Positions 1,978 to 17,057 are shown, counted from the stretch's first letter. The stretch is 17,214 bases of DNA from Candidatus Micrarchaeota archaeon (GCA_027046625.1 JALTXX010000014.1:28129-45342); one strand, 5' to 3'. Program-made: numbers and translations. Notes: a model not told the origin generated them from the sequence alone.

Positions 1978-3150
1978 GTGGCACTGCTGGTATTGGTAGT
2001 AGACAGAGATGACGACCTTGGAGTAAAGACCGGTATAAAAGGGCCTATACTGGGTAGAGAAGAGGCTTTGAAGGCAGCTAATGCACTTCTATTATCTGAT
2101 CCTGAGGATTCGGATGGAAACACCATTTTTGCTGCTATAAAGATAGCTGATGAGCTGAAAAAGGAGGGAGAAATAGTTCAGATAGCAGTCGTTACTGGAG
2201 ATAGGGATGTTGGCATAAGGGCAGATAAAACTATTAGGGAACAGATGAAGGAGATTTTTTCCAAGTATCAGTTTGATGGGATTGTATTTGTAACAGATGG
2301 AGCTGAAGATGACCAAGTAATCCCCATCATATCCTCCTTTGCTCCCATAGTATCAAAAAAGACTGTAGTAGTTAGACAGGCAAAAGAGTTAGAAAAAACT
2401 TTCTACACCGTAAAAACAGCCCTTGAAGATCCGTCTTTCGCCCGTATGTTCCTTGGTATACCTGGTATCATCCTCCTTCTCTGGTTTTTGCTCCAGGAAA
2501 ATGCTCTAAGAATCATAATAGGTATCTTAAGCATCTACCTTATTATAAGGGGATTTGGGCTGGAAGATACAGTTATGAGCATGGTACAATCTTTTCTGAG
2601 AGTAGATCCTCACTCTATATCCCTTCCCTTTCACCTAGCGTCCTTTGCCCTTATCATAATAGGAGTATTTTTGTCTATCCACACATCTACCTATGGAAGT
2701 ATAGTAGAGGCTGCTAGGTTGCTGTTATTTTTCTTCTGGGGAGCCTTTACTGTATTCCTCTTAGGAAAATCTGCGGAAGCCATCTCCCAGAAAAGAGCAT
2801 ACAAAATTGGAGATTATCTTGCCATTGGAGGGGCTATTACAGCCGGATATGTAATTGGAGATGGGCTGCTAAACATTGTAAGTGGTGTTTTTGGTCCTCT
2901 TCATATGGTTTTCATCTTTCTTGTTACTGTAATGGCTTACTACATTGTTTACAAGATATCTACTGTAATAAAAAGGGCTCCATTACTTTCAGAGAAGATA
3001 AAGGGAAAACCTGTATATGACAGGGTTGGCTCCCTCTTAGGAAGGGTAAAGGGTGTTGACGAAGATGTTCTCATCATAGAAAGGGGTAGAAGATATACAA
3101 GAGTTCCACTATCCCAAGTAAGGATCGTGGAGGGGAGGATTGTGATATGA
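1978..3150 (+). CDS. DUF373-like archaeal membrane protein. It has an N-terminal soluble domain of about 150 aa, a central polytopic membrane domain of about 6-7 TM segments, and a C-terminal PRC-barrel-like domain of about 55 aa.
   Basis: The 390-aa ORF has a GTG start at 1978 and an ATG alternative at 2554. The N-terminal stretch VLVVDRDDDLGVKTGIKGPILGREEALKAAN...IVFVTDGAEDDQVIP matches my recollection of the archaeal-specific DUF373 (PF04123) family. The C-terminal stretch GKPVYDRVGSLLGRVKGVDEDVLIIERGRRYTRVPLSQVRIVEGRIVI fits the PRC-barrel pattern G-x-x-V-x-D-x-x-G-x-x-LG-x-V-x-D. The stop codon overlaps the next gene's ATG in an ATGA motif. Confidence 0.6.
   Translation: MALLVLVVDRDDDLGVKTGIKGPILGREEALKAANALLLSDPEDSDGNTIFAAIKIADELKKEGEIVQIAVVTGDRDVGIRADKTIREQMKEIFSKYQFDGIVFVTDGAEDDQVIPIISSFAPIVSKKTVVVRQAKELEKTFYTVKTALEDPSFARMFLGIPGIILLLWFLLQENALRIIIGILSIYLIIRGFGLEDTVMSMVQSFLRVDPHSISLPFHLASFALIIIGVFLSIHTSTYGSIVEAARLLLFFFWGAFTVFLLGKSAEAISQKRAYKIGDYLAIGGAITAGYVIGDGLLNIVSGVFGPLHMVFIFLVTVMAYYIVYKISTVIKRAPLLSEKIKGKPVYDRVGSLLGRVKGVDEDVLIIERGRRYTRVPLSQVRIVEGRIVI
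3129..3138 (+). promoter_or_regulatory. Shine-Dalgarno sequence GGAGGGGAGG, 8 nt upstream of the ATG at 3147. It marks the downstream gene as an internal operon gene translationally coupled to the DUF373 gene.
   Basis: The sequence is complementary to the archaeal 16S rRNA 3' end (CCUCC). The spacing and the ATGA stop/start overlap at 3147-3150 support the call. Confidence 0.5.
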
Positions 3151-3833
3151 TTATCTTTGAAGGAAGATTTATCCCGATATGGCTCGTATTCTCCACTATC
3201 CTTGCCTCTGTGATCTACGTATCCCTTCCCTCTATGGAGTATGAGGCTCCTAGTGAACTACCCATTCTTATTCTGTTATTCATAATACTGTTTACCCTCT
3301 TCCTTTTGTGGGTGCTTCATCGCTATCCCCTTCTTTTGAAAGGATTGGAATACTTCATTCTCTCCCTTCTAGGATTATACATAACCAATCATCCCTTGGG
3401 CAGCCTCCTCCCTTTCCTCCTCCTTCTACACAAAAACCTCACCTATTCTATTGCAGCCGCATTCTCCTCCGCACTTATTGCATCCATGATGGATGTAAAG
3501 GCTGTGCTGCTGCTCTACACGCTGCTCTCTATTTACGATCTCATTGCAGTCTTCGTCACAAAACACATGGTAGACCTTGTGCATAAGCTGGGATACAGAG
3601 CGGGTGGAGATAAACCACTCCTTGGAGGTGGGGATATCATTATTCCTCTATCCTTCTCACTAAAATTACTAGATTTTGGTATTATTCCCTTTTTGTTATC
3701 CTTCTTTGGACATCTAATAGCAATATTACTCCTTCTATGGTATGTAAAAAGAGAAAAAGTGGCACTTCCGGCACTTCCCTTCACATTAACAGCTCAGATT
3801 GTCCCACTACTGTTCCTCTTACCCTACCTTTAA
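3147..3833 (+). CDS. Minimal presenilin / signal-peptide-peptidase family homolog. It is a GxGD-type intramembrane aspartyl protease (archaeal PSH-like) with about 9 short TM segments.
   Basis: The 228-aa ORF carries the three family motifs in the canonical order. The YD motif is SIYDLIAVFVTKHM (nt 3534-3539); compare human PS1 VYDLVAVL. The GxGD motif is LLGGGDIIIPLSF (Asp codon 3633-3635); compare SPP GLGDIVIPG. The PAL motif is KVALPALPFT (nt 3768-3776); compare PS1 PALP. Type IV prepilin peptidases also have GxGD but lack YD upstream and PAL downstream. Confidence 0.65.
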   Translation: MIIFEGRFIPIWLVFSTILASVIYVSLPSMEYEAPSELPILILLFIILFTLFLLWVLHRYPLLLKGLEYFILSLLGLYITNHPLGSLLPFLLLLHKNLTYSIAAAFSSALIASMMDVKAVLLLYTLLSIYDLIAVFVTKHMVDLVHKLGYRAGGDKPLLGGGDIIIPLSFSLKLLDFGIIPFLLSFFGHLIAILLLLWYVKREKVALPALPFTLTAQIVPLLFLLPYL

Positions 3834-4437
3834 GGGCATCTCTCACAACCTCTATTCGCTTCCCCACCACAACAATAGGGATAGAGGATCGTTTTGCCAA
3901 CAAAATAGATGGTATATCGAGGGGAAAATGGGATCCAGGACTTCCTATATCCTTTTCTATGGCCATCTTTAACAGTTCATCGTAGTCTATAGAAGGCATC
4001 ACCTTCCCATTTTCGTCATATATACCCTCCACGTTTGTTATGTTAATCACAACTCCTCCCACATACTCTGCTACGGATAGTGCGACAAAATCTGTGGTTA
4101 ATCCAGGTAGTATGCTACCCCCAAAGATGTTTATTCTGCCTTTTTCAAGGAAGGGGCCCTCATAGAGTTTTGGCTCTGTAGCCATCTCTCCAAGAGCAGC
4201 TTTAAACAACCACGCATTAAGCAGGGTTGCTCCTATCCCTACCATATCCTTTACTTGGTTATTATCCGAAAGTTTTGACACCGCTCCTATCATATTTCTA
4301 GCCAAGGGTCCTCCGCCCACCACAATGGCGGGGATCTTGTCCCTTTCCTCCCGGATAAGGGATGACAGTTTACTTACCCATTCAGTATCTGGGGGGTATC
4401 CTATGGTGGATCCTCCTATTGAGAGTACGGCCTTCAT
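3781..4437 (-). CDS. pyrH: Amino-acid-kinase-fold protein, most likely uridylate (UMP) kinase.
   Basis: The 218-aa ORF starts MKAVLSIGGS (compare KLSGE/IGGS of AAK-fold enzymes). IPAIVVGGGPLARN matches the UMPK VVxGGGNxxRG loop. PGLTTDFVALSVAEYVGGVVINITNVEGIYDENG matches PGxTTD...TNVDGVY. The size fits archaeal UMP kinases. The 3' end overlaps the convergent upstream gene by 53 bp. Confidence 0.65.
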   Translation of the reverse strand: MKAVLSIGGSTIGYPPDTEWVSKLSSLIREERDKIPAIVVGGGPLARNMIGAVSKLSDNNQVKDMVGIGATLLNAWLFKAALGEMATEPKLYEGPFLEKGRINIFGGSILPGLTTDFVALSVAEYVGGVVINITNVEGIYDENGKVMPSIDYDELLKMAIEKDIGSPGSHFPLDIPSILLAKRSSIPIVVVGKRIEVVRDALKGRVRGTVVGQSELLM

Positions 4438-7794: not shown

Positions 7795-10700
7795 ATGAAG
7801 GCCCTCTTCACCAACCTCTGCCCCAACTGTAGAGGGGAAATAGACGACTCAAGACTGGAAAAACACCTTCCATGTAAAAGATGTTTGACCGATGAGGTGG
7901 AAGAAGGGAATTATAACACATTAGTAAAGACGGTGTTCTCTCATTTAAAGAATAAAGATGGGTATACACTCATATACAATACTGTAAATGGATTAGAGGA
8001 ATTCGAAGCATTCTTTAAGAAGTACACCGGTTATCCTTTGTGGAGTGCTCAGCGCTCATGGACAAAGCGCTTGCTACTAAACAAATCATTTTCTATTGTG
8101 GCGCCAACTGGTGTGGGAAAATCGCTCTTTGGAACCATGTATGCAGCCTTTTTAGCAGAAAAGGGCAAAAGATCTTACATTATCGTTCCTACCTCCACAC
8201 TGGTAAAACAAACACTGGATAGACTGTCCTTCAGGGAAGATGCGATTGGATTCTACTCTGCCATGACTCAGAAGAGAAAGGAGGAAATAATGGAACGTTT
8301 AAGGAGTGGGGATTTCCGTATTTTGGTTACCACCTCGCAGTTTCTGGCTCGTCGCTTTGAAGACATTCCTGTAAAGTTCGACTTCATCTTTGTAGATGAC
8401 GTAGATGCGCTCCTTAAATCCTCTAAGAATATAGATAGGGTGCTTTTATTACTAGGATTTCAAGAAAAGGACATAGAAACTGCCCTTTCCCTTATAAGGG
8501 AAAAGATACTCCTGGCTAGAGGAAAAGGGGACAGAAAAAAGGTTGAACACCTCGAAAAGATCCTAAAGAAAAGGAAAAAAGATATAAAAGGATCTCTTGT
8601 TGTTGCATCAGCTACAGGTAGATCTAGAGGGTTAAGATCAAGGTTGTTTAGAGAGTTGCTTGATTTTGAGGTGGGCTCCTCTAGGGCTCAGCTAAGGAAT
8701 GTGATTAACGTTTATACAAAAGAAGATGACATATCCTACTGGATAAGAAGGTTAGGTGGTGGAGGAATCATATTCGTATCCCACGGAGAAGACGAAGCAA
8801 AACGGATTACCGATGAGTTAAACAATATTGGAATAAGAGCTGCCTTCGCAGGGGGAGAAAAAGCCGTAAGTGCACTTGAGTCATTCGCAAAGGGGGAAGT
8901 TGATATACTTGTAGGATCTGCCTACTACTATGGAACCCTTGTAAGGGGCATCGACCTGCCGGAAAGAGTAAGGTATACCGTATTTGTGGGTGTCCCCAAG
9001 TTTAGGTTTGGTATGGACTTCGAAGGAATAAATCCTGGGAGAGCTGCCTTTCTTCTGGATATACTATATGACATAACATCTGATTCCTCTCTGAGAACCT
9101 TGGCAAACAGGCTTAGAAGATACGCAAGGGAGGAGGATCTGGAGGAGGCAAAGAAGATGCTAAGGGAGCTTATATCTAAGAGGGAAATCCTTGACAAGCT
9201 AAAGGAGCATCCAGATATAGTAATAGAAGAGGGAGATAAGTTATACATCATTATCCCCGATTACAAAACATATATCCAAGGCTCTGGAAGAGCCTCAAGA
9301 ATGTATGCAGGTGGAGTAACCACGGGGTTATCGCTGCTAATAGTGGACAATGAAAAGGTGTTTGAGCTGTTAAGACGTATTCTGTTCAACGTGTATGGAG
9401 AATCGTTCTCCCCTGTGAAAGAAGTAAACCTTGAGGATATCCTAAGAAAGATTGACGAAGAACGAAGGAGGATTAGGGAAAGATCCTGGAAGGATCCTGT
9501 AAGAACAATATTATTCGTGGTAGAATCCCCCAACAAAGCAAGAACAATAGCAAGATTCTTTGGGAGGCCGTCTGTGTACAGAATAGGAAGTATTAGAGGC
9601 TATGAGGTTACCACAGGAGATACAATTGTAAACGTGGTGGCAACGAGAGGGCACATGTTTGACCTGGTAACAGATAGAGGATTTCATGGTGTGCTGGTAA
9701 ACGATAGGATAATACCCGTTTATACTACCATCAAACGATGCAATCAATGTGGTACACAAACTACAGATAATGTGTGCCCAAAATGTGGAAGTACAGACCT
9801 AGAAGATGCCATAGAGAGGGTTAATGCGTTGAGATTGTTTGCTCTTGAGATGGATGAGGTCCTCATAGGTACAGATCCAGATACGGAAGGTGAAAAGATT
9901 GCATGGGATGTAATGCTAGCTATATCTCCCTATAATCCATCCATTAAAAGATCTGAGTTCCACGAGGTTACAAAGAACGCCCTCCTAAAGGCTATAAGGG
10001 AGCCCAGATCCTTTAATATAAACAGGGTAGATGCCCAGATTGTAAGAAGGGTTGAAGATCGGTGGATAGGTTTTGAGCTATCCCAAAAGCTGTGGACTGT
10101 TTTTGGCAACAGAGGGCTCTCCGCTGGAAGGGTTCAAACACCTGTACTTGGATGGATCATTGAGAGATATATGGAGCACAAGAAACAGGTAGCGGTGTTC
10201 CTTTCTGTAGATACAGAGGTTGGCAGATTCGTATTTGAAACACCTTTCAGAAATATAAACCAAGCAAAAGCTTATGGTAACAGTGGTATTATACGGATAG
10301 AACTATTGGAAAGTAGAGAGGAGATCAAACACCCACCTCCACCCTTTACTACAGACACCCTTATAAGGGATGGGGGTAATGTTCTACGTCTCGGGGCCAA
10401 GGAGATTATGGATCTTGCCCAAGATCTCTTCGAGGCAGGTCTTATAACATACCATAGAACCGATTCTACTCACGTATCCTCTACCGGAATAGCCATTGCA
10501 AAGGAGTATATATCCTCCAAATGGGGAGAAGATTACTTTAGGGGCAGATCATGGGGCAGAGAAGGAGCTCACGAATGTATAAGGCCTACACGGTCCCTTG
10601 ATACAGAGACGTTAATTAGATACATAAGGGAGGGAGAAATAGTGGTGGAGGGTATCAGCAAGCAGCACCTAAGGCTATACGATCTTATCTTTAGGAGATT

Positions 10701-11220
10701 TATGGAAAGCCAGATGAAGGAGGCGAAGGTAATTGTTTCAAAGTACAGAGTTACACTAGAGGCACTATCCACAGAAGAAGAGAGGATATCAGATATAGTG
10801 GAAAGGGGGTGGATGGTTCTGGAGAACATCGAACCATCACCCCTAAAGGAGGGAGCGTATAAACCTCTTTCTGTTTTATCCTACAAGGCATCTAAGATAC
10901 CACTATATACCCAAAGTGATGTAGTGGCCCTCATGAAGGAGAGGGGCATAGGCAGGCCGTCTACATACGCCACCATCCTACAAAAGCTACTAGAAAGAAG
11001 ATACATAATAGAAACTAAAAGTAAGCGCAGATTGTATCCTACAAGAAGGGGTATAGAAGTGTTTAACTACCTCAACTCGAAGTTCTACGATCTTGTTTCC
11101 GAGGAAAGAACAAAGATGTTAGAAATGCTCATGGAGGAGATTGAGGAAGGAAGGTTACATTATATGGATGTACTTAAGGAACTCTACAGGGAGATAGTAT
11201 CAACAAGGGGGATTATATAG
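7795..11220 (+). CDS. rgy: Reverse gyrase: N-terminal zinc finger plus SF2 helicase-like domain fused to a type IA topoisomerase domain.
   Basis: I place the start at ATG 7795 (MKALFTNLCPNCRGE...CKRCL, the N-terminal zinc finger), giving 1141 aa. Walker A is APTGVGKS and helicase motif II is FVDDVD. A second zinc finger, CNQCG...CPKCG, lies at the helicase/topoisomerase junction. The topo IA active-site region GLITYHRTDSTHVS keeps the catalytic Tyr, and the Toprim acidic motif GTDPDTEGE is present. No intein is evident. The ORF track's upstream extension (7498-7794) overlaps the ZPR1 gene and carries no conserved residues. Confidence 0.95.
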   Translation: MKALFTNLCPNCRGEIDDSRLEKHLPCKRCLTDEVEEGNYNTLVKTVFSHLKNKDGYTLIYNTVNGLEEFEAFFKKYTGYPLWSAQRSWTKRLLLNKSFSIVAPTGVGKSLFGTMYAAFLAEKGKRSYIIVPTSTLVKQTLDRLSFREDAIGFYSAMTQKRKEEIMERLRSGDFRILVTTSQFLARRFEDIPVKFDFIFVDDVDALLKSSKNIDRVLLLLGFQEKDIETALSLIREKILLARGKGDRKKVEHLEKILKKRKKDIKGSLVVASATGRSRGLRSRLFRELLDFEVGSSRAQLRNVINVYTKEDDISYWIRRLGGGGIIFVSHGEDEAKRITDELNNIGIRAAFAGGEKAVSALESFAKGEVDILVGSAYYYGTLVRGIDLPERVRYTVFVGVPKFRFGMDFEGINPGRAAFLLDILYDITSDSSLRTLANRLRRYAREEDLEEAKKMLRELISKREILDKLKEHPDIVIEEGDKLYIIIPDYKTYIQGSGRASRMYAGGVTTGLSLLIVDNEKVFELLRRILFNVYGESFSPVKEVNLEDILRKIDEERRRIRERSWKDPVRTILFVVESPNKARTIARFFGRPSVYRIGSIRGYEVTTGDTIVNVVATRGHMFDLVTDRGFHGVLVNDRIIPVYTTIKRCNQCGTQTTDNVCPKCGSTDLEDAIERVNALRLFALEMDEVLIGTDPDTEGEKIAWDVMLAISPYNPSIKRSEFHEVTKNALLKAIREPRSFNINRVDAQIVRRVEDRWIGFELSQKLWTVFGNRGLSAGRVQTPVLGWIIERYMEHKKQVAVFLSVDTEVGRFVFETPFRNINQAKAYGNSGIIRIELLESREEIKHPPPPFTTDTLIRDGGNVLRLGAKEIMDLAQDLFEAGLITYHRTDSTHVSSTGIAIAKEYISSKWGEDYFRGRSWGREGAHECIRPTRSLDTETLIRYIREGEIVVEGISKQHLRLYDLIFRRFMESQMKEAKVIVSKYRVTLEALSTEEERISDIVERGWMVLENIEPSPLKEGAYKPLSVLSYKASKIPLYTQSDVVALMKERGIGRPSTYATILQKLLERRYIIETKSKRRLYPTRRGIEVFNYLNSKFYDLVSEERTKMLEMLMEEIEEGRLHYMDVLKELYREIVSTRGII

Positions 11221-12210: not shown

Positions 12211-14772
12211 ATGATCCGTGAAGTCCACATTAAAAACTGGAAGTCCCATGGAGAAATAAATGGAAATTACGGCAGTTCTCTGTCATTTGAAAGGGGACTG
12301 AACGTTATATATGGTGTTAACGGTAGCGGGAAAAGTTCTATAGCCGAAGCCATACACTTCGCTCTTTTTGGGAAAAGGGGAGACGATGTTATCAGAAGAG
12401 GTGCTAAGAAGGCGGAGGTAAAAGTAGTTCTTGAAACGGATAATGTATACATTATAAAGAGGAGTTTGGGTCGAGGGGGGAGCGATGACGTTGTCGTAAT
12501 GACTGAGGATGGTAAGCTTCTTTCTGTTTCTAAGCAAAGGGATGCTAATAAGACGGTAGAGGACATCTTAGGCGTTAATGCAAAGCTGTTTGAGAAGGCT
12601 GTATACGGGGAACAAAACAAGATGTTGGAGTTCTATGAAAGTTCTCCCAAGGAGAGGGCCAAGATGATAGACGACATTATGGGTATGAAAGAGTTTTTTG
12701 AGGCAAAGGAGGTAATAACTAGAATATATAACAGGCTTTTGGATGAGATACGCCAGAAGGGTGATAAATTAACAGACTACAAAAAGGAAGAGGAGGAACT
12801 AAAGACATCCATTTCCAAAGAGGAGGAGAAGGTGTCCTCGCTTAGGGAAAGAGTAATGGAATTAACTTCTATGGTTGAATCGTTATCCTCCTCAGAGGAA
12901 AAGCTAAAGAAGGAGCTCTCAGAACTTGAAGTAAATCTTAGATCCCTTGAAGAGAAGAGAGAAAAGTATATCACACTATCTGCCCAGGTAAAACGGTTAA
13001 AGGAAGAGATAAAGTGGCCTGACGCGTCTGAAAAGGATGAAGATATGCTTCAGGAACTTCTCTCTAAGATGGAGAAGAAAAAGTCTCTGGAGGGAACTAT
13101 AAACCACCTAAAAAGCAGGAGAGAAAGGATTCTCAAAGAATTGGAAAGCATCCCAGAGGCAGAAGAGGTTGATATGGAGAGATTAAAAAAAGAATTGGAA
13201 GAAAAGGAGTATATACTAAGAGAGATAGAGGATAAACATAATGGTATAAGGAAGGAGCTTTATTCTTTGGAGATAAACATCTCTTCCCTGAAGGAGGAGC
13301 TAAAGCACCTACTAATGAAGGAAGAAGAGTATAAGCGACTGTCCTCTGAAGTTAATGAGCTTCCTTTCCTGAAAGATAGGCTGGAAAGCCTCACAGAAAA
13401 CCTTGAAGAGTTAAGATCGGTTGAGGAGGAGTTAAAAAGTCGTATATCGGTACTTAAGCAGTCTCACCTACTGAAAGAAGGCCGGTGCCCCCTCTGTGGA
13501 AGGAGTATCGACAAAGTACATGCAGAGGAGATAATAGCACATAGAGAAGAGGAGCTGAAGAAGTTACAAAATGAGTTGGAAGCTGTCCTCGCAAAAAGAA
13601 AGGTTATGGAGAGGGAATACAACGATGTCCATCGAAGAGTTTTGGCCTTAGAGGTTAAGCAGGACAGATTAAAGGATTTAAAAGACCAGCTGTCAAATAA
13701 AGAGGACATAAAAAGAAAAATAGAAGAAAGTGATAGAAGATTGAAAGAATTGGGGGAAATGCTCTCACGTATCGAAGAGGAAAAGAGCCGTATATCGTCC
13801 TTGGTAGAAGCATTAAGAAAACGGCTTTCCGACGCCATAAACACACTCAATATTATAAACAGGAAACGCTCCCTTCAGCAAGAGCTGCTAGAGGTTGAGA
13901 AAGAAATAGAGAAAACGGAACATTCATTAAAAGAGTTGGGAGACATAGACGCACAAACAATAGAGAGATACAGGGAAAGGGTGGAGAGTTACAGGAAAAA
14001 GCTTCAGCTAGAAGCTCTAGAGAAACAATTATCATCCCTACAATGGGATGAAAGAGAATATAACAATATGAAAAGTAGGGTGGAAGCGGTTAGAAAGGAA
14101 TTTTTAGAGTTGGTTTCCAAGAAGAAGGAGCTGGAAGGAACCCTAAAGGGCCTTCAGGAAACATTAAGAGAAAAGGAAAAATTGCTAGAGGAGATGAAAA
14201 GACGGTTAGCCATTTTGGAAGATGAGTTAAGAGATTATGAAAGGCTAAAAACTATAAGGGACAGTCTTGAACTTGTAAGAAGGGCGTGGGAAGAAAGTAT
14301 AAAAGAGGTTAGGAAGAGGAGGGTGGACCTCATTAATAAAACCGTAAAACTGGTGTGGAATGCCGTCTACAGATCTCAGTATTCCGACTATAAGGACATA
14401 TCTTTCTCCATGGAAAGTGCACGGTCTGGATATACCTACTCCCTCAAGGTAAAAGGGGATGAGTGGTACGATGTAGATGTGTTGTCTGGTGGAGAACGTA
14501 TGCTAGCCTTACTAGCTCTTCGGATAGCCATGGCTTATCTTCTCAGCAAAAAGAGCGGTTTCCTCATCCTTGACGAACCTACCCACAACCTTGACGAAAA
14601 CATTAGTAGAAAGTTGGCTGAATTTCTTCACAACACAACCCAAGAGGGTCTCTTTGATCAAATCATTCTTATTACCCATGATCCTGTATTCTCTGAGTAT
14701 GCAGACGTTGTATATCGTATGGAGAGAGCCAAAACCGGCAACGATCCCACCACAGTTGTTAGAGAACGTTAG
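12211..14772 (+). CDS. rad50: DNA double-strand-break repair ATPase Rad50 (SMC-like ABC ATPase with a central zinc hook).
   Basis: I place the start at ATG 12211, giving 853 aa; the track begins at TTG 12208. Walker A is GVNGSGKSS. Q-loop region is present. A long heptad-rich E/K/L coiled coil follows. The CPLCG zinc hook lies exactly at the midpoint (nt 13486-13500, residues 426-430). The ABC signature LSGGE (VLSGGERMLALLAL) is present. Walker B/D-loop is FLILDEPTHNLD and the H-loop is LITHD. Confidence 0.85.
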   Translation: MIREVHIKNWKSHGEINGNYGSSLSFERGLNVIYGVNGSGKSSIAEAIHFALFGKRGDDVIRRGAKKAEVKVVLETDNVYIIKRSLGRGGSDDVVVMTEDGKLLSVSKQRDANKTVEDILGVNAKLFEKAVYGEQNKMLEFYESSPKERAKMIDDIMGMKEFFEAKEVITRIYNRLLDEIRQKGDKLTDYKKEEEELKTSISKEEEKVSSLRERVMELTSMVESLSSSEEKLKKELSELEVNLRSLEEKREKYITLSAQVKRLKEEIKWPDASEKDEDMLQELLSKMEKKKSLEGTINHLKSRRERILKELESIPEAEEVDMERLKKELEEKEYILREIEDKHNGIRKELYSLEINISSLKEELKHLLMKEEEYKRLSSEVNELPFLKDRLESLTENLEELRSVEEELKSRISVLKQSHLLKEGRCPLCGRSIDKVHAEEIIAHREEELKKLQNELEAVLAKRKVMEREYNDVHRRVLALEVKQDRLKDLKDQLSNKEDIKRKIEESDRRLKELGEMLSRIEEEKSRISSLVEALRKRLSDAINTLNIINRKRSLQQELLEVEKEIEKTEHSLKELGDIDAQTIERYRERVESYRKKLQLEALEKQLSSLQWDEREYNNMKSRVEAVRKEFLELVSKKKELEGTLKGLQETLREKEKLLEEMKRRLAILEDELRDYERLKTIRDSLELVRRAWEESIKEVRKRRVDLINKTVKLVWNAVYRSQYSDYKDISFSMESARSGYTYSLKVKGDEWYDVDVLSGGERMLALLALRIAMAYLLSKKSGFLILDEPTHNLDENISRKLAEFLHNTTQEGLFDQIILITHDPVFSEYADVVYRMERAKTGNDPTTVVRER

Positions 14773-16370
14773 GCTACTCTCTCTTCCGGTCCAAATCCAT
14801 ATGAGAAGTCTGTGGACGGACCCATGCCTATATAATCAAGGTACATCCTAACCGTAAAGTAGTTTTGGTAGTCTAGCACTGCACTACCAAACACTGTATA
14901 CTTTTGCTGGGTGGGCAGTATAACACCAAATCTAAGGTTTGAGTTGGAGGTAGTAATATACTCCTTTACATCGCTGGCTGTTCTATATCTACAATTCTTG
15001 GTATCTACGTAGTATCTATAGCACACTGCCCTCGTAAGCTCTTCTCCAGATGAGCTGTTTGTTATATTGAAGACCTCGCTAGTTACAAGGTCTCTAGGAA
15101 AGCTCCCACCTATACCCATTACTACATTACACACATCCATACTCCACCAATCTATCTTGACGTTTCTTATCCTGCATGTGGATGAGCTATATGAAGCCCC
15201 CTTCGCTCCATATCCTATACTCTTATTTGCAAAGAGGGCAGTAGCTTTGTAAGTATGGATGTACGTACCGTAGCTTCTGACAGTTCTATAATCTCCACGT
15301 CCGCTCTCTACCCTTCCGGAGTATACAATGAGGGGATTTCTTATGGGAACGGTTGGCTTCATAATGTAATATCTCCACGTCGGATACGTGTTGGTAAACT
15401 GAACTCCATTGTATACATAACTGTAAGTATCCCTGCTTCTATACAACGTAACATCAAAGTATAACCTTCCGTTTCTAATATAATAGGAGGCACTCCCTTC
15501 CCCAAGCTCCTCTATATTGGATTCGTTGAGTTCCAAGGTGAAACCATTAATGGTTCTTCCGCTGAAATCCTCATACACATCAAAAACATTTTTTGGGTTT
15601 GATATGGAGGTAGCGGATGGATTTCCATAGTATACGTAGAAGAAGGTGGTACCTCCCTTCTTTAAGGTTGATCTGAGAAATATTCTCGTGTTTGAGAGAC
15701 ACGTTCCAGGTAATATCCACATGGGTACTTCCTGTCCTCTTTCGTCGAGGACTCTTAGATCTCCACAGTCGCTCCGTATCTTCCTCTCATTATAGAGGGC
15801 TCTAGTGTTAAGGTCGATGTAGAACACTACATCTCCACCTTTATTACTATAAACCAACAAGGCCTTCCTGTATTTCCACCCAGATACGGCAGTTTTATAA
15901 ACTGTGGCAGCAGAGCAGCTGCCAACTTCCCTAGACCCTATATGAACCACAGCACAAATGTTGTACTCCCCTTCATTATTCACAGTGTAGCTTCTACTTA
16001 ACGTTTGGGGAGCGATGGTACCGTTCTCTATGAGCTGATCATTAACGTATATGGAGTAGTTTACCTCCTCTCCATCAGAAAGAATAACAACATTGTAATC
16101 TATTGAAACAGGGAAGGATTCGGTAGAAACGTATTCTGGAGATTCCACTATTACATAGATATAACTAAATAACATGCTTTTCGGTATGGTAAAGTTTATA
16201 TCTACCGTATAATCTCTTAAAACATCAAAATTTACCTCTGTAGTACTAGGAGTCGACACTTCTTGAGATATAGCTTCTAAGGTATTGAGAAGGGCGGTAC
16301 CTGTCACAGTTACCAGTATGATGGATGCTCCCAATAAGAGGAGGTACTCCACATTGGTTTGACCGTACAC
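14769..16370 (-). CDS. Type-IV-pilin-like surface protein (class III signal peptide followed by an N-terminal hydrophobic helix) with a large extracellular domain containing a DUF2341-like, ConA-like region.
   Basis: The 533-aa ORF has a GTG start directly after an in-frame TAG. Its N-terminus (M/V)YG|QTNVEYLLLLGASIILVTVTGTALL fits the prepilin pattern: Gly at -1, Gln at +1, Glu at +5, then a hydrophobic helix of about 20 aa. The remainder is S/T/Y/N-rich and beta-like. The segment DCGDLRVLDERGQEVPMWILPG...TTFFYVYYGNPSATS resembles the DUF2341 core (DG.DiRF.d.dG..L.yeiE.W...vWVkvp...ttiymYYGN). Confidence 0.5.
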   Translation of the reverse strand: MYGQTNVEYLLLLGASIILVTVTGTALLNTLEAISQEVSTPSTTEVNFDVLRDYTVDINFTIPKSMLFSYIYVIVESPEYVSTESFPVSIDYNVVILSDGEEVNYSIYVNDQLIENGTIAPQTLSRSYTVNNEGEYNICAVVHIGSREVGSCSAATVYKTAVSGWKYRKALLVYSNKGGDVVFYIDLNTRALYNERKIRSDCGDLRVLDERGQEVPMWILPGTCLSNTRIFLRSTLKKGGTTFFYVYYGNPSATSISNPKNVFDVYEDFSGRTINGFTLELNESNIEELGEGSASYYIRNGRLYFDVTLYRSRDTYSYVYNGVQFTNTYPTWRYYIMKPTVPIRNPLIVYSGRVESGRGDYRTVRSYGTYIHTYKATALFANKSIGYGAKGASYSSSTCRIRNVKIDWWSMDVCNVVMGIGGSFPRDLVTSEVFNITNSSSGEELTRAVCYRYYVDTKNCRYRTASDVKEYITTSNSNLRFGVILPTQQKYTVFGSAVLDYQNYFTVRMYLDYIGMGPSTDFSYGFGPEERVA

Positions 16371-16403
16371 CTATTAAGTATCCTTCCACCATTTAAAAAT
16401 GCG
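16371..16403. promoter_or_regulatory. 33-bp divergent spacer between the pilin-like gene and the E1-like gene. It contains TATTAAGTA and ATTTAAAAAT.
   Basis: The A/T-rich TATA-like elements are the only support. Assignment to either gene is uncertain. Confidence 0.25.
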
Positions 16404-17057
16404 ATGATGAAGAGGTATTACTCTGAAGGGGTGATGAATAGGCACGCAGCTGAGCTATACCAAAGGAGCAGACACGCATGGTGGAAGCTAAGAGATAAGA
16501 GATTACTTATAGCTGGGGCTGGGGGGTTAGGTACCTTTGTACTAGCTAATTTACTTGGATCGGGTATAGGAGAAATTGTTGTAGTTGACAGAGACAAAGT
16601 AGAACCTCATAACCTCAACAGACAGTTCTTCTATGGGTTAGAAGACGTTGGACGGTGGAAGGTTGAGATTCTCAAGGAAAGGTTATCCTATAGACATGAA
16701 AACATCTCCTTTAAGAGAACTGATATAGAGGAGGTAGATATAACCCACTTTCACGTGGTAGTAGACTGTTTAGATAGGTGGAAGGAGAAATCTGCCCTCA
16801 TAGATAGGGCTATAGATAGTGATATTCCCATTGTTAGTATTTCGGCAGGAAGAGGAAAGGGGATGGTTACATCCCCTAGGAAAAGGATTCCCTTCACTCC
16901 AAAGGATGAATGTATTGTATCCACTCCGGAACTTTCAGTGGCAGCCGGTATAGGGTCTAATGAAGTTATAAATACATTAACTGGCAATCCAAGACTGGTT
17001 AATAAGTTACTCGTATTTGATTTAAACACCTACGACTTTCAACTAGTCGAATACTAA
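16404..17057 (+). CDS. ThiF/MoeB/HesA-family E1-like adenylyltransferase (ubiquitin-activating-enzyme fold). It is a candidate activator of small ubiquitin-like sulfur-carrier or modifier proteins.
   Basis: The Rossmann dinucleotide motif LLIAGAGGLGTFVLANLLGSGIGEIVVVDRDKVEPHNLNRQFFY fits the E1 family pattern GxGxxG ... D.D.VE.SNLNRQ. The RYYSEG region near the N-terminus corresponds to the conserved RYSRQ. I place the start at ATG 16404 (MMKRYY...), giving 217 aa. The track's TTG at 16359 would overlap the divergent gene's start. No CxxC zinc pairs are present. Confidence 0.7.
   Translation: MMKRYYSEGVMNRHAAELYQRSRHAWWKLRDKRLLIAGAGGLGTFVLANLLGSGIGEIVVVDRDKVEPHNLNRQFFYGLEDVGRWKVEILKERLSYRHENISFKRTDIEEVDITHFHVVVDCLDRWKEKSALIDRAIDSDIPIVSISAGRGKGMVTSPRKRIPFTPKDECIVSTPELSVAAGIGSNEVINTLTGNPRLVNKLLVFDLNTYDFQLVEY

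Follow-up and report, generated by a model that had tools for sequence, protein, structure and literature searches.

A compact and divergent presenilin-family intramembrane aspartyl protease homolog of a DPANN-type archaeon

The stretch of DNA analyzed here, called the window, comprises 17,214 nucleotides (nt) of one strand from Candidatus Micrarchaeota archaeon (GCA_027046625.1 JALTXX010000014.1:28129-45342). On its plus strand, next to a gene for a DUF373 membrane protein, an open reading frame (ORF) of 228 codons with an ATG start occupies positions 3147..3833. The product of this frame, the query of the searches described below, is a homolog of the presenilin-family intramembrane aspartyl proteases. 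A preliminary description of the locus had reported that the YD, GxGD, and PAL motifs are contained in IYDLIAVFV, LLGGGDIIIP, and ALPALPF, and all three are present in the translation (Y130-D131, G160-D163, and P208-P211). The gene and the features at its start are as follows.

3147..3833, plus strand: coding sequence of the 228-residue homolog of presenilin-family (A22/PF06550-type) intramembrane aspartyl proteases, assigned from the ORF, its homologs, profile matches to the archaeal presenilin homolog PSH, and fold matches to SPPL2a, PSH, and PS2
3129..3138, plus strand: two tandem GGAGG Shine-Dalgarno-like motifs of presumed function, read from the sequence, 8-17 nt 5' of the ATG and within the 3' end of the DUF373 gene
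3147..3150, plus strand: ATGA start/stop overlap, read from the sequence, in which the protease ATG overlaps the TGA of the upstream DUF373 gene

The protease frame has an in-frame stop at 3087-3089, and no ATG, GTG, or TTG codon is found from there to 3147, so 228 residues is the maximum length of the protein. A fragment can be ruled out, since the N- and C-termini both line up with the ends of full-length relatives. Four positional orthologs are found in the same gene block at other loci (L052, L053, L055, and L057), namely, P0012 (258 residues), P0014 (257), P0023 (247), and P0016 (241). The 3' end of the protease gene overlaps that of a convergent UMP-kinase-like gene on the minus strand by 53 nt (3781-3833), which corresponds to 17 codons of each gene. 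A convergent overlap of 29-44 nt is present at all four orthologous loci; it is thus a conserved feature of a compact block and not a gene-calling artefact. A promoter and terminator scan of the window remained at chance level, but its models are bacterial and not applicable to archaea.

Searches with the query sequence alone were marginal or uninformative, and profiles were therefore needed. A phmmer search of the single sequence against the PDB sequences gave no match. In a word-indexed search of 5.8 billion proteins, only the query itself and eight PF06550 proteins with 28-43% identity were retrieved, and the protease has no close relatives in that collection. An exhaustive HMMER scan (phmmer against 1.84 billion representatives) gave 71 matches, the best of which, apart from the query itself, had E = 1.2e-12. 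Judged by sequence, the resemblance to the family is far beyond chance. YD is found in all but two of the 71 matches and GxGD in all but one, and PALP follows GxGD by about 48 residues in most of them. The exception common to both motifs is P0013, a protein of 1078 residues and the second-best match. It was rejected as a relative: only residues 28-74 are matched, in 11 repeated stretches, without YD, GxGD, or PAL, which is most likely an artefact of hydrophobic repeats. In an alignment of 46 sequences, Y130, D131, V135, H140, M141, G160, G162, D163, P208, and P211 are invariant, and A209 is nearly so.

Profiles connect the query firmly with PSH, also called MCMJR1, of Methanoculleus marisnigri JR1. 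A profile built from the query and its eight matches aligned with PSH (4HYC, 4HYD, 4HYG, and 4Y6K) at E = 2.4e-27 over nearly the full PSH length, and a profile of the query and the four positional orthologs only still reached E = 1.3e-15. The same five-ortholog profile matched the PAL/TM9 region of human presenilin-1 weakly (E = 0.0036-0.075; TM, transmembrane helix). All five orthologs, the query included, matched PF06550 at E <= 0.01. The eukaryotic-type signal peptide peptidase (SPP) model PF04258 (A22B) did not match the query and was matched weakly by one of the five (E = 0.0015), and none of the five matched the Peptidase_A24 models. Thus, the profile search against the PDB that the preliminary description had called for has PSH as its best match and not a type IV prepilin peptidase (A24). 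The defensible name would be 'presenilin-family homolog' rather than PSH equivalog.

The fold was modeled with AlphaFold2. A run on a 9-sequence alignment was poor (predicted local distance difference test, pLDDT, 61) and was set aside, and the run on the 46-sequence alignment was used (mean pLDDT 86.9, predicted TM-score 0.84). Helices are modeled at residues 8-29, 39-59, 63-79, 83-92, 96-114, 117-138, 140-147, 162-177, 179-203, and 209-222. Hydropathy and the model agree on nine membrane helices in the presenilin arrangement, with loops of 1-9 residues except for the TM6-TM7 connection, in agreement with the roughly nine hydrophobic segments and near absence of loops noted earlier. The model superimposes on 208 residues of SPPL2a and also has fold matches to PSH and PS2. 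The parts discussed below are located as follows, all on the plus strand.

3393..3431, plus strand: unusually short TM4 (residues 83-95, PLGSLLPFLLLLH; modeled helix 83-92 only), from the AlphaFold model; the orthologs are 8-10 residues longer here
3495..3560, plus strand: TM6 (residues 117-138) with YD and the predicted catalytic D131 at 3537-3539; Y130 and D131 are invariant in the 46 sequences, and D131 aligns with PSH D162
3564..3587, plus strand: TMD6a-like helix (residues 140-147, HMVDLVHK), a separate helix in the model, supported by the PSH alignment
3618..3635, plus strand: beta2-like strand (L158-L159) followed by GGGD (160-163), with the predicted catalytic D163 at 3633-3635; G160, G162, and D163 are invariant, and D163 aligns with PSH D220
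3768..3779, plus strand: PALP (residues 208-211) directly before TM9, with P208 and P211 invariant, at the modeled helix 209-222

The active-site parts of PSH are found in the query in the same order. Y130-D131 align with PSH Y161-D162 and lie in TM6, and GGGD (G160-D163) aligns with PSH G217-D220, with the second aspartate at the start of TM7. D131 is within the modeled helix 117-138 and D163 is at the beginning of helix 162-177, so the two aspartates are not placed outside the membrane, an outcome that the preliminary description had set against its own proposal. Between them, the query segment T138-K-H-M-V-D-L-V-H-K147 aligns with PSH T169-...-E177, the helix called TMD6a. In PSH, a hydrophobic patch on TMD6a (M172, I173, L175, and A176) is required for substrate cleavage (PMC9282858), and M141, V142, L144, and V145 take its place in the alignment with the query. 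The query strand 158-159 matches beta2, which pairs with the substrate in models of PSH and gamma-secretase (PMC9282858). On the side formed by the N-terminus and the 2-3, 4-5, 6-7, and 8-9 connections, the query has six lysine and arginine residues and none on the opposite side; the four orthologs have 7-11 versus 0-2. Owing to this positive-inside bias, the N-terminus and the TM6-TM7 connection are predicted to be cytoplasmic, which is the presenilin orientation and not that of SPP.

Only two beta segments are present in the model, residues 2-3 (3147-3155) and residues 158-159 (3618-3623), and a tail motif, M-[IL]-[ILV]-[FLV]-x-G, is kept at the N-terminus of the orthologs. Because these are the only beta segments, the model implies that the N-terminal tail may pair with the strand just before GGGD, the site of substrate docking in gamma-secretase.

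The size and the GxGD motif alone could also suggest an A24 type IV prepilin or preflagellin (archaellin) peptidase. FlaK and PibD, which belong to A24, are likewise GxGD aspartyl intramembrane proteases of an overall size similar to that of the query. Beyond this size (approximately 230 residues) and GxGD, no computed result supports such an assignment. FlaK and PibD have a different fold of six TM helices without YD or PAL, and the query matched them neither in sequence nor in structure. There was no A24 peptidase among the fold matches of the AlphaFold model, and the six-TM FlaK-like fold was not matched. An A24 identity is effectively refuted and is scarcely credible.

Thus, the gene at 3147..3833 (plus strand) very probably encodes a stand-alone nine-TM GxGD intramembrane aspartyl protease of the presenilin/PSH type (MEROPS A22; PF06550). 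The profile matches to PSH, the fold matches to SPPL2a, PSH, and PS2, and the invariant motifs bear out the presenilin/SPP-homolog reading of the preliminary description. Homology, fold, motif conservation, the topology prediction, and orthology are established, and from these we infer catalytic activity, the mechanism, and stand-alone action. Within the membrane, D131 in TM6 would lie opposite D163 in TM7, and the pair would activate a water molecule. As in PSH and gamma-secretase, part of a substrate TM helix would be unwound and kept at the active site by TMD6a (140-147), the strand 158-159, and the PALP turn (208-211). The enzyme would work alone by this di-aspartyl, PSH-like mechanism.

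Compared with known members, the query is about 21-23% identical to PSH (301 residues versus 228). PSH has PPL (PMC2947513) at the position where the query has the canonical PALP. The archaeal PF06550 proteins, from DPANN and other lineages, share the motifs of the query including PALP, the nine-TM layout, and the predicted orientation, with lengths of 241-366 residues and 27-38% identity. PALP is therefore the normal form of the archaeal family, from which PSH deviates, and its identity with the human presenilin-1 motif, which had been singled out earlier, was rejected as the sign of a special relation. Human presenilin-1/2 and SPP/SPPL2a (A22A/A22B) are 17-20% identical to the query. Unlike these, the query lacks the long cytosolic N-terminus and the large TM6-TM7 loop, and without this loop it has no obvious endoproteolysis site. 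Its predicted orientation is opposite to that of SPP/SPPL. Archaea are not known to have nicastrin, APH-1, or PEN-2 partners.

The query is unusually short. Full-length proteins among the 71 matches have 241, 242, 243, 245, 246, 247, 248, 249, and more residues, and the PF06550 members listed in the profile search of the 5.8-billion-protein collection have 245-366. Probable fragments account for the entries below 210 residues in that collection, which come from contigs of about 2 kb or smaller or lack a recorded contig. The query appears to be the shortest complete family member found, by 13 residues. However, it is only slightly shorter than its relatives of 241-249 residues. Relative to PSH, it lacks approximately 26 residues between TMD6a and beta2, 22 across TM3-TM4, 9 in the TM7-TM8 loop, 5 in the TM1-TM2 loop, and parts of both tails. 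Its 228 residues are close to the number ordered in the PSH crystal chains (237-247). Relative to the four orthologs, the query is 13-30 residues shorter, with 62 non-TM residues versus 75-87, and the largest loss peculiar to it, at the TM4/TM5 junction, amounts to 8-10 residues. The shrinkage would thus have come about by trimming of loops (TM1-TM2, TMD6a-beta2, and the tails), with the loss at the TM4/TM5 junction added in the query only.

A further reading takes these features as parts of an active, minimized presenilin. According to this, TM4 is no longer a canonical membrane span, and the N-terminal M-I-I-F-x-G tail pairs with beta2 in place of the loop-derived beta1, perhaps together with a coupled DUF373 protein. 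We consider this combination unlikely. If true, the protein would be the most compact presenilin core that works, and its substrate-docking sheet would be built in a new way.

Several observations weigh against a functional presenilin-type protease. With the query alone, Pfam PF06550 (SPP, presenilin aspartyl protease) scored 20.9 bits at a cut-off of 23.9 (E = 2.8e-4, residues 106-145) and the NCBIfam PSH equivalog NF041679 scored 23.5 bits at a cut-off of 125, and both matches are confined to residues 104-145. TM4, at 10-13 residues, is below the length of a canonical membrane-spanning helix. Engineered truncations of the TM6-TM7 loop inactivated MCMJR1/PSH (PMC2947513), and the activity of a naturally short form is therefore not to be assumed. 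The protease is also the fastest-diverging gene of the syntenic block, and only one metagenome-assembled genome has yielded its sequence. The TM4 region may carry an in-frame deletion derived from assembly.

These points can be combined into the view that the protein is a decaying or inactive relic (pseudo-protease), or one shortened by assembly, in which the short TM4 and the minimal loops abolish proteolysis while the motifs persist. The scores below both family thresholds, the lowest identity to orthologs within the syntenic block, the 8-10 residues missing from the query alone at TM4/TM5, the inactivated MCMJR1 loop truncations, and the single source genome all speak for it. However, all family-invariant positions are intact. 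The frame is unbroken; a Shine-Dalgarno-like site precedes it, and the overlap of its start with the upstream stop is conserved. Confidence in the model is high, and it can be superimposed on 208 residues of SPPL2a. The connection between TM6a and beta2 is even shorter in the ortholog P0023, where TM6 and TM7 are joined by 19 residues versus 23 in the query. Furthermore, the protease orthologs are as divergent from one another (27-46% identity) as they are from the query, which argues for fast evolution of the family in this lineage and rules out the query as a decaying outlier. As to the thresholds, a precomputed PF06550 match is on record, unmarked, for three of the four positional orthologs, and no Pfam family is on record for the query or its 241-residue ortholog. 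Because orthologs carry PF06550 matches and profiles containing the query match PSH strongly, the sub-threshold score reflects a failure of sensitivity for a divergent member and not a contradiction. A relic is thus quite improbable, and a presenilin-type protease is retained as the preferred explanation.

The two genes that flank the protease gene are as follows.

1993..3150, plus strand: DUF373 membrane protein (gene call; PF04123, E = 6.6e-82) with a weak C-terminal match resembling a PRC barrel
3781..4437, minus strand: gene for an amino-acid kinase resembling archaeal UMP kinase, convergent with the protease gene and sharing 53 nt with it at the 3' ends

The DUF373 gene is adjacent to the protease gene at all four orthologous loci. 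The 4-nt overlap of its stop with the protease start is found in the window and at three of them (L052, L055, and L057), and the genes abut at L053. The overlap suggests translational coupling of the two genes. The protease could accordingly act with the DUF373 product as a two-subunit membrane complex, in which the latter is a regulator, a substrate adaptor, or a substrate, loosely like the partners in gamma-secretase, and the overlap has been kept although the proteins are only about 30-50% identical. However, the whole six-gene block is syntenic, so that inheritance alone may account for the adjacency. In 50 other presenilin-homolog loci, mostly from DPANN and drawn from a collection without the source genome, no DUF373 gene is nearby, and the flanks of 13 other metagenomic DUF373 loci contain no presenilin homolog. 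In addition, PSH is active without partners (PMC2947513). DUF373 has no solved relative, and a literature search on it gave nothing useful. In view of the two surveys, the pairing is regarded as lineage synteny with a low probability of a functional link, and a two-subunit complex is very unlikely. The kinase scored 119 bits against archaeal UMP kinase TIGR02076 (cut-off 158) and is another fast-evolving gene of the block, as seen below.

Other neighbors in the window are genes for SpoIIM, Band_7, aRF1, archaeosine TGT, reverse gyrase, aEF-1beta, Mut7-C, and Rad50. Identities between the window and the orthologous loci are 29-32% for the protease, 38-50% for DUF373, 49-72% for Band_7, 65-75% for aRF1, 60% for TGT, and 34-40% for the kinase. 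The nearest named relatives of aRF1, at 80% and 64% identity, are labeled Candidatus Diapherotrites, followed by Micrarchaeota; the organism, an uncultured archaeon, is therefore of the DPANN type. Reverse gyrase is encoded at 7795-11220 (plus strand) with zf_Rg, helicase, Toprim, and topoisomerase domains, which points to thermophily or hyperthermophily of this DPANN lineage. The window proteins that were looked up are all singletons at 90% clustering. A mechanical ORF list over-extends aRF1 (4325 versus the called start 4475) and reverse gyrase (7498 versus 7795). At the right end of the window are a 533-residue ORF with a DUF2341 domain (14769-16370, minus strand) and a ThiF-family ORF (16359-17057, plus strand).

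More distant relatives of the protease adjoin MCM or occur in other contexts. A second conserved neighborhood (L058 and L060/L061; proteins P0015 and P0026) has the presenilin homolog directly 3' of MCM and near eIF-1A and eIF-2beta. It is unrelated to that of the window, and the MCM at L060 contains an intein. PF06550-like genes are also found on contigs labeled as candidate phyla radiation (CPR) bacteria (Saccharibacteria, Patescibacteria, Paceibacterota, or simply 'bacterium'), at L015 (a 654-kb contig), L023, L025, and L032. Errors of binning or labeling could explain these cases, as could gene transfer between the ultra-small lineages of archaea and bacteria.

In Alzheimer's research, presenilin-family proteases hold a central place, and PSH serves as their main simple structural model. 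The family is an established one with known motifs, a known fold, and a recognized wide distribution in DPANN. Some of its members have only 241-249 residues, and many relatives are already named 'presenilin family intramembrane aspartyl protease' (NCBI) and 'presenilin-like A22 family membrane protease' (JGI). The query is a divergent, compact, and currently unannotated member of this widely annotated family and not a new kind of protein. The gain is incremental, and the novelty is one of degree: the shortest member found, a truncated TM4, and scores below the thresholds of the family models. The case also indicates that curated family models miss divergent presenilin-family members. The query keeps the two aspartates, TMD6a, beta2, and the canonical PAL motif that PSH lacks. 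As a homolog near the size of the ordered PSH core and from a probable thermophile, it could serve as a minimal, thermostable scaffold for structural and mechanistic studies, and proof of its activity, together with confirmation of either the short TM4 or the modeled pairing of the tail with beta2, would add to its interest.
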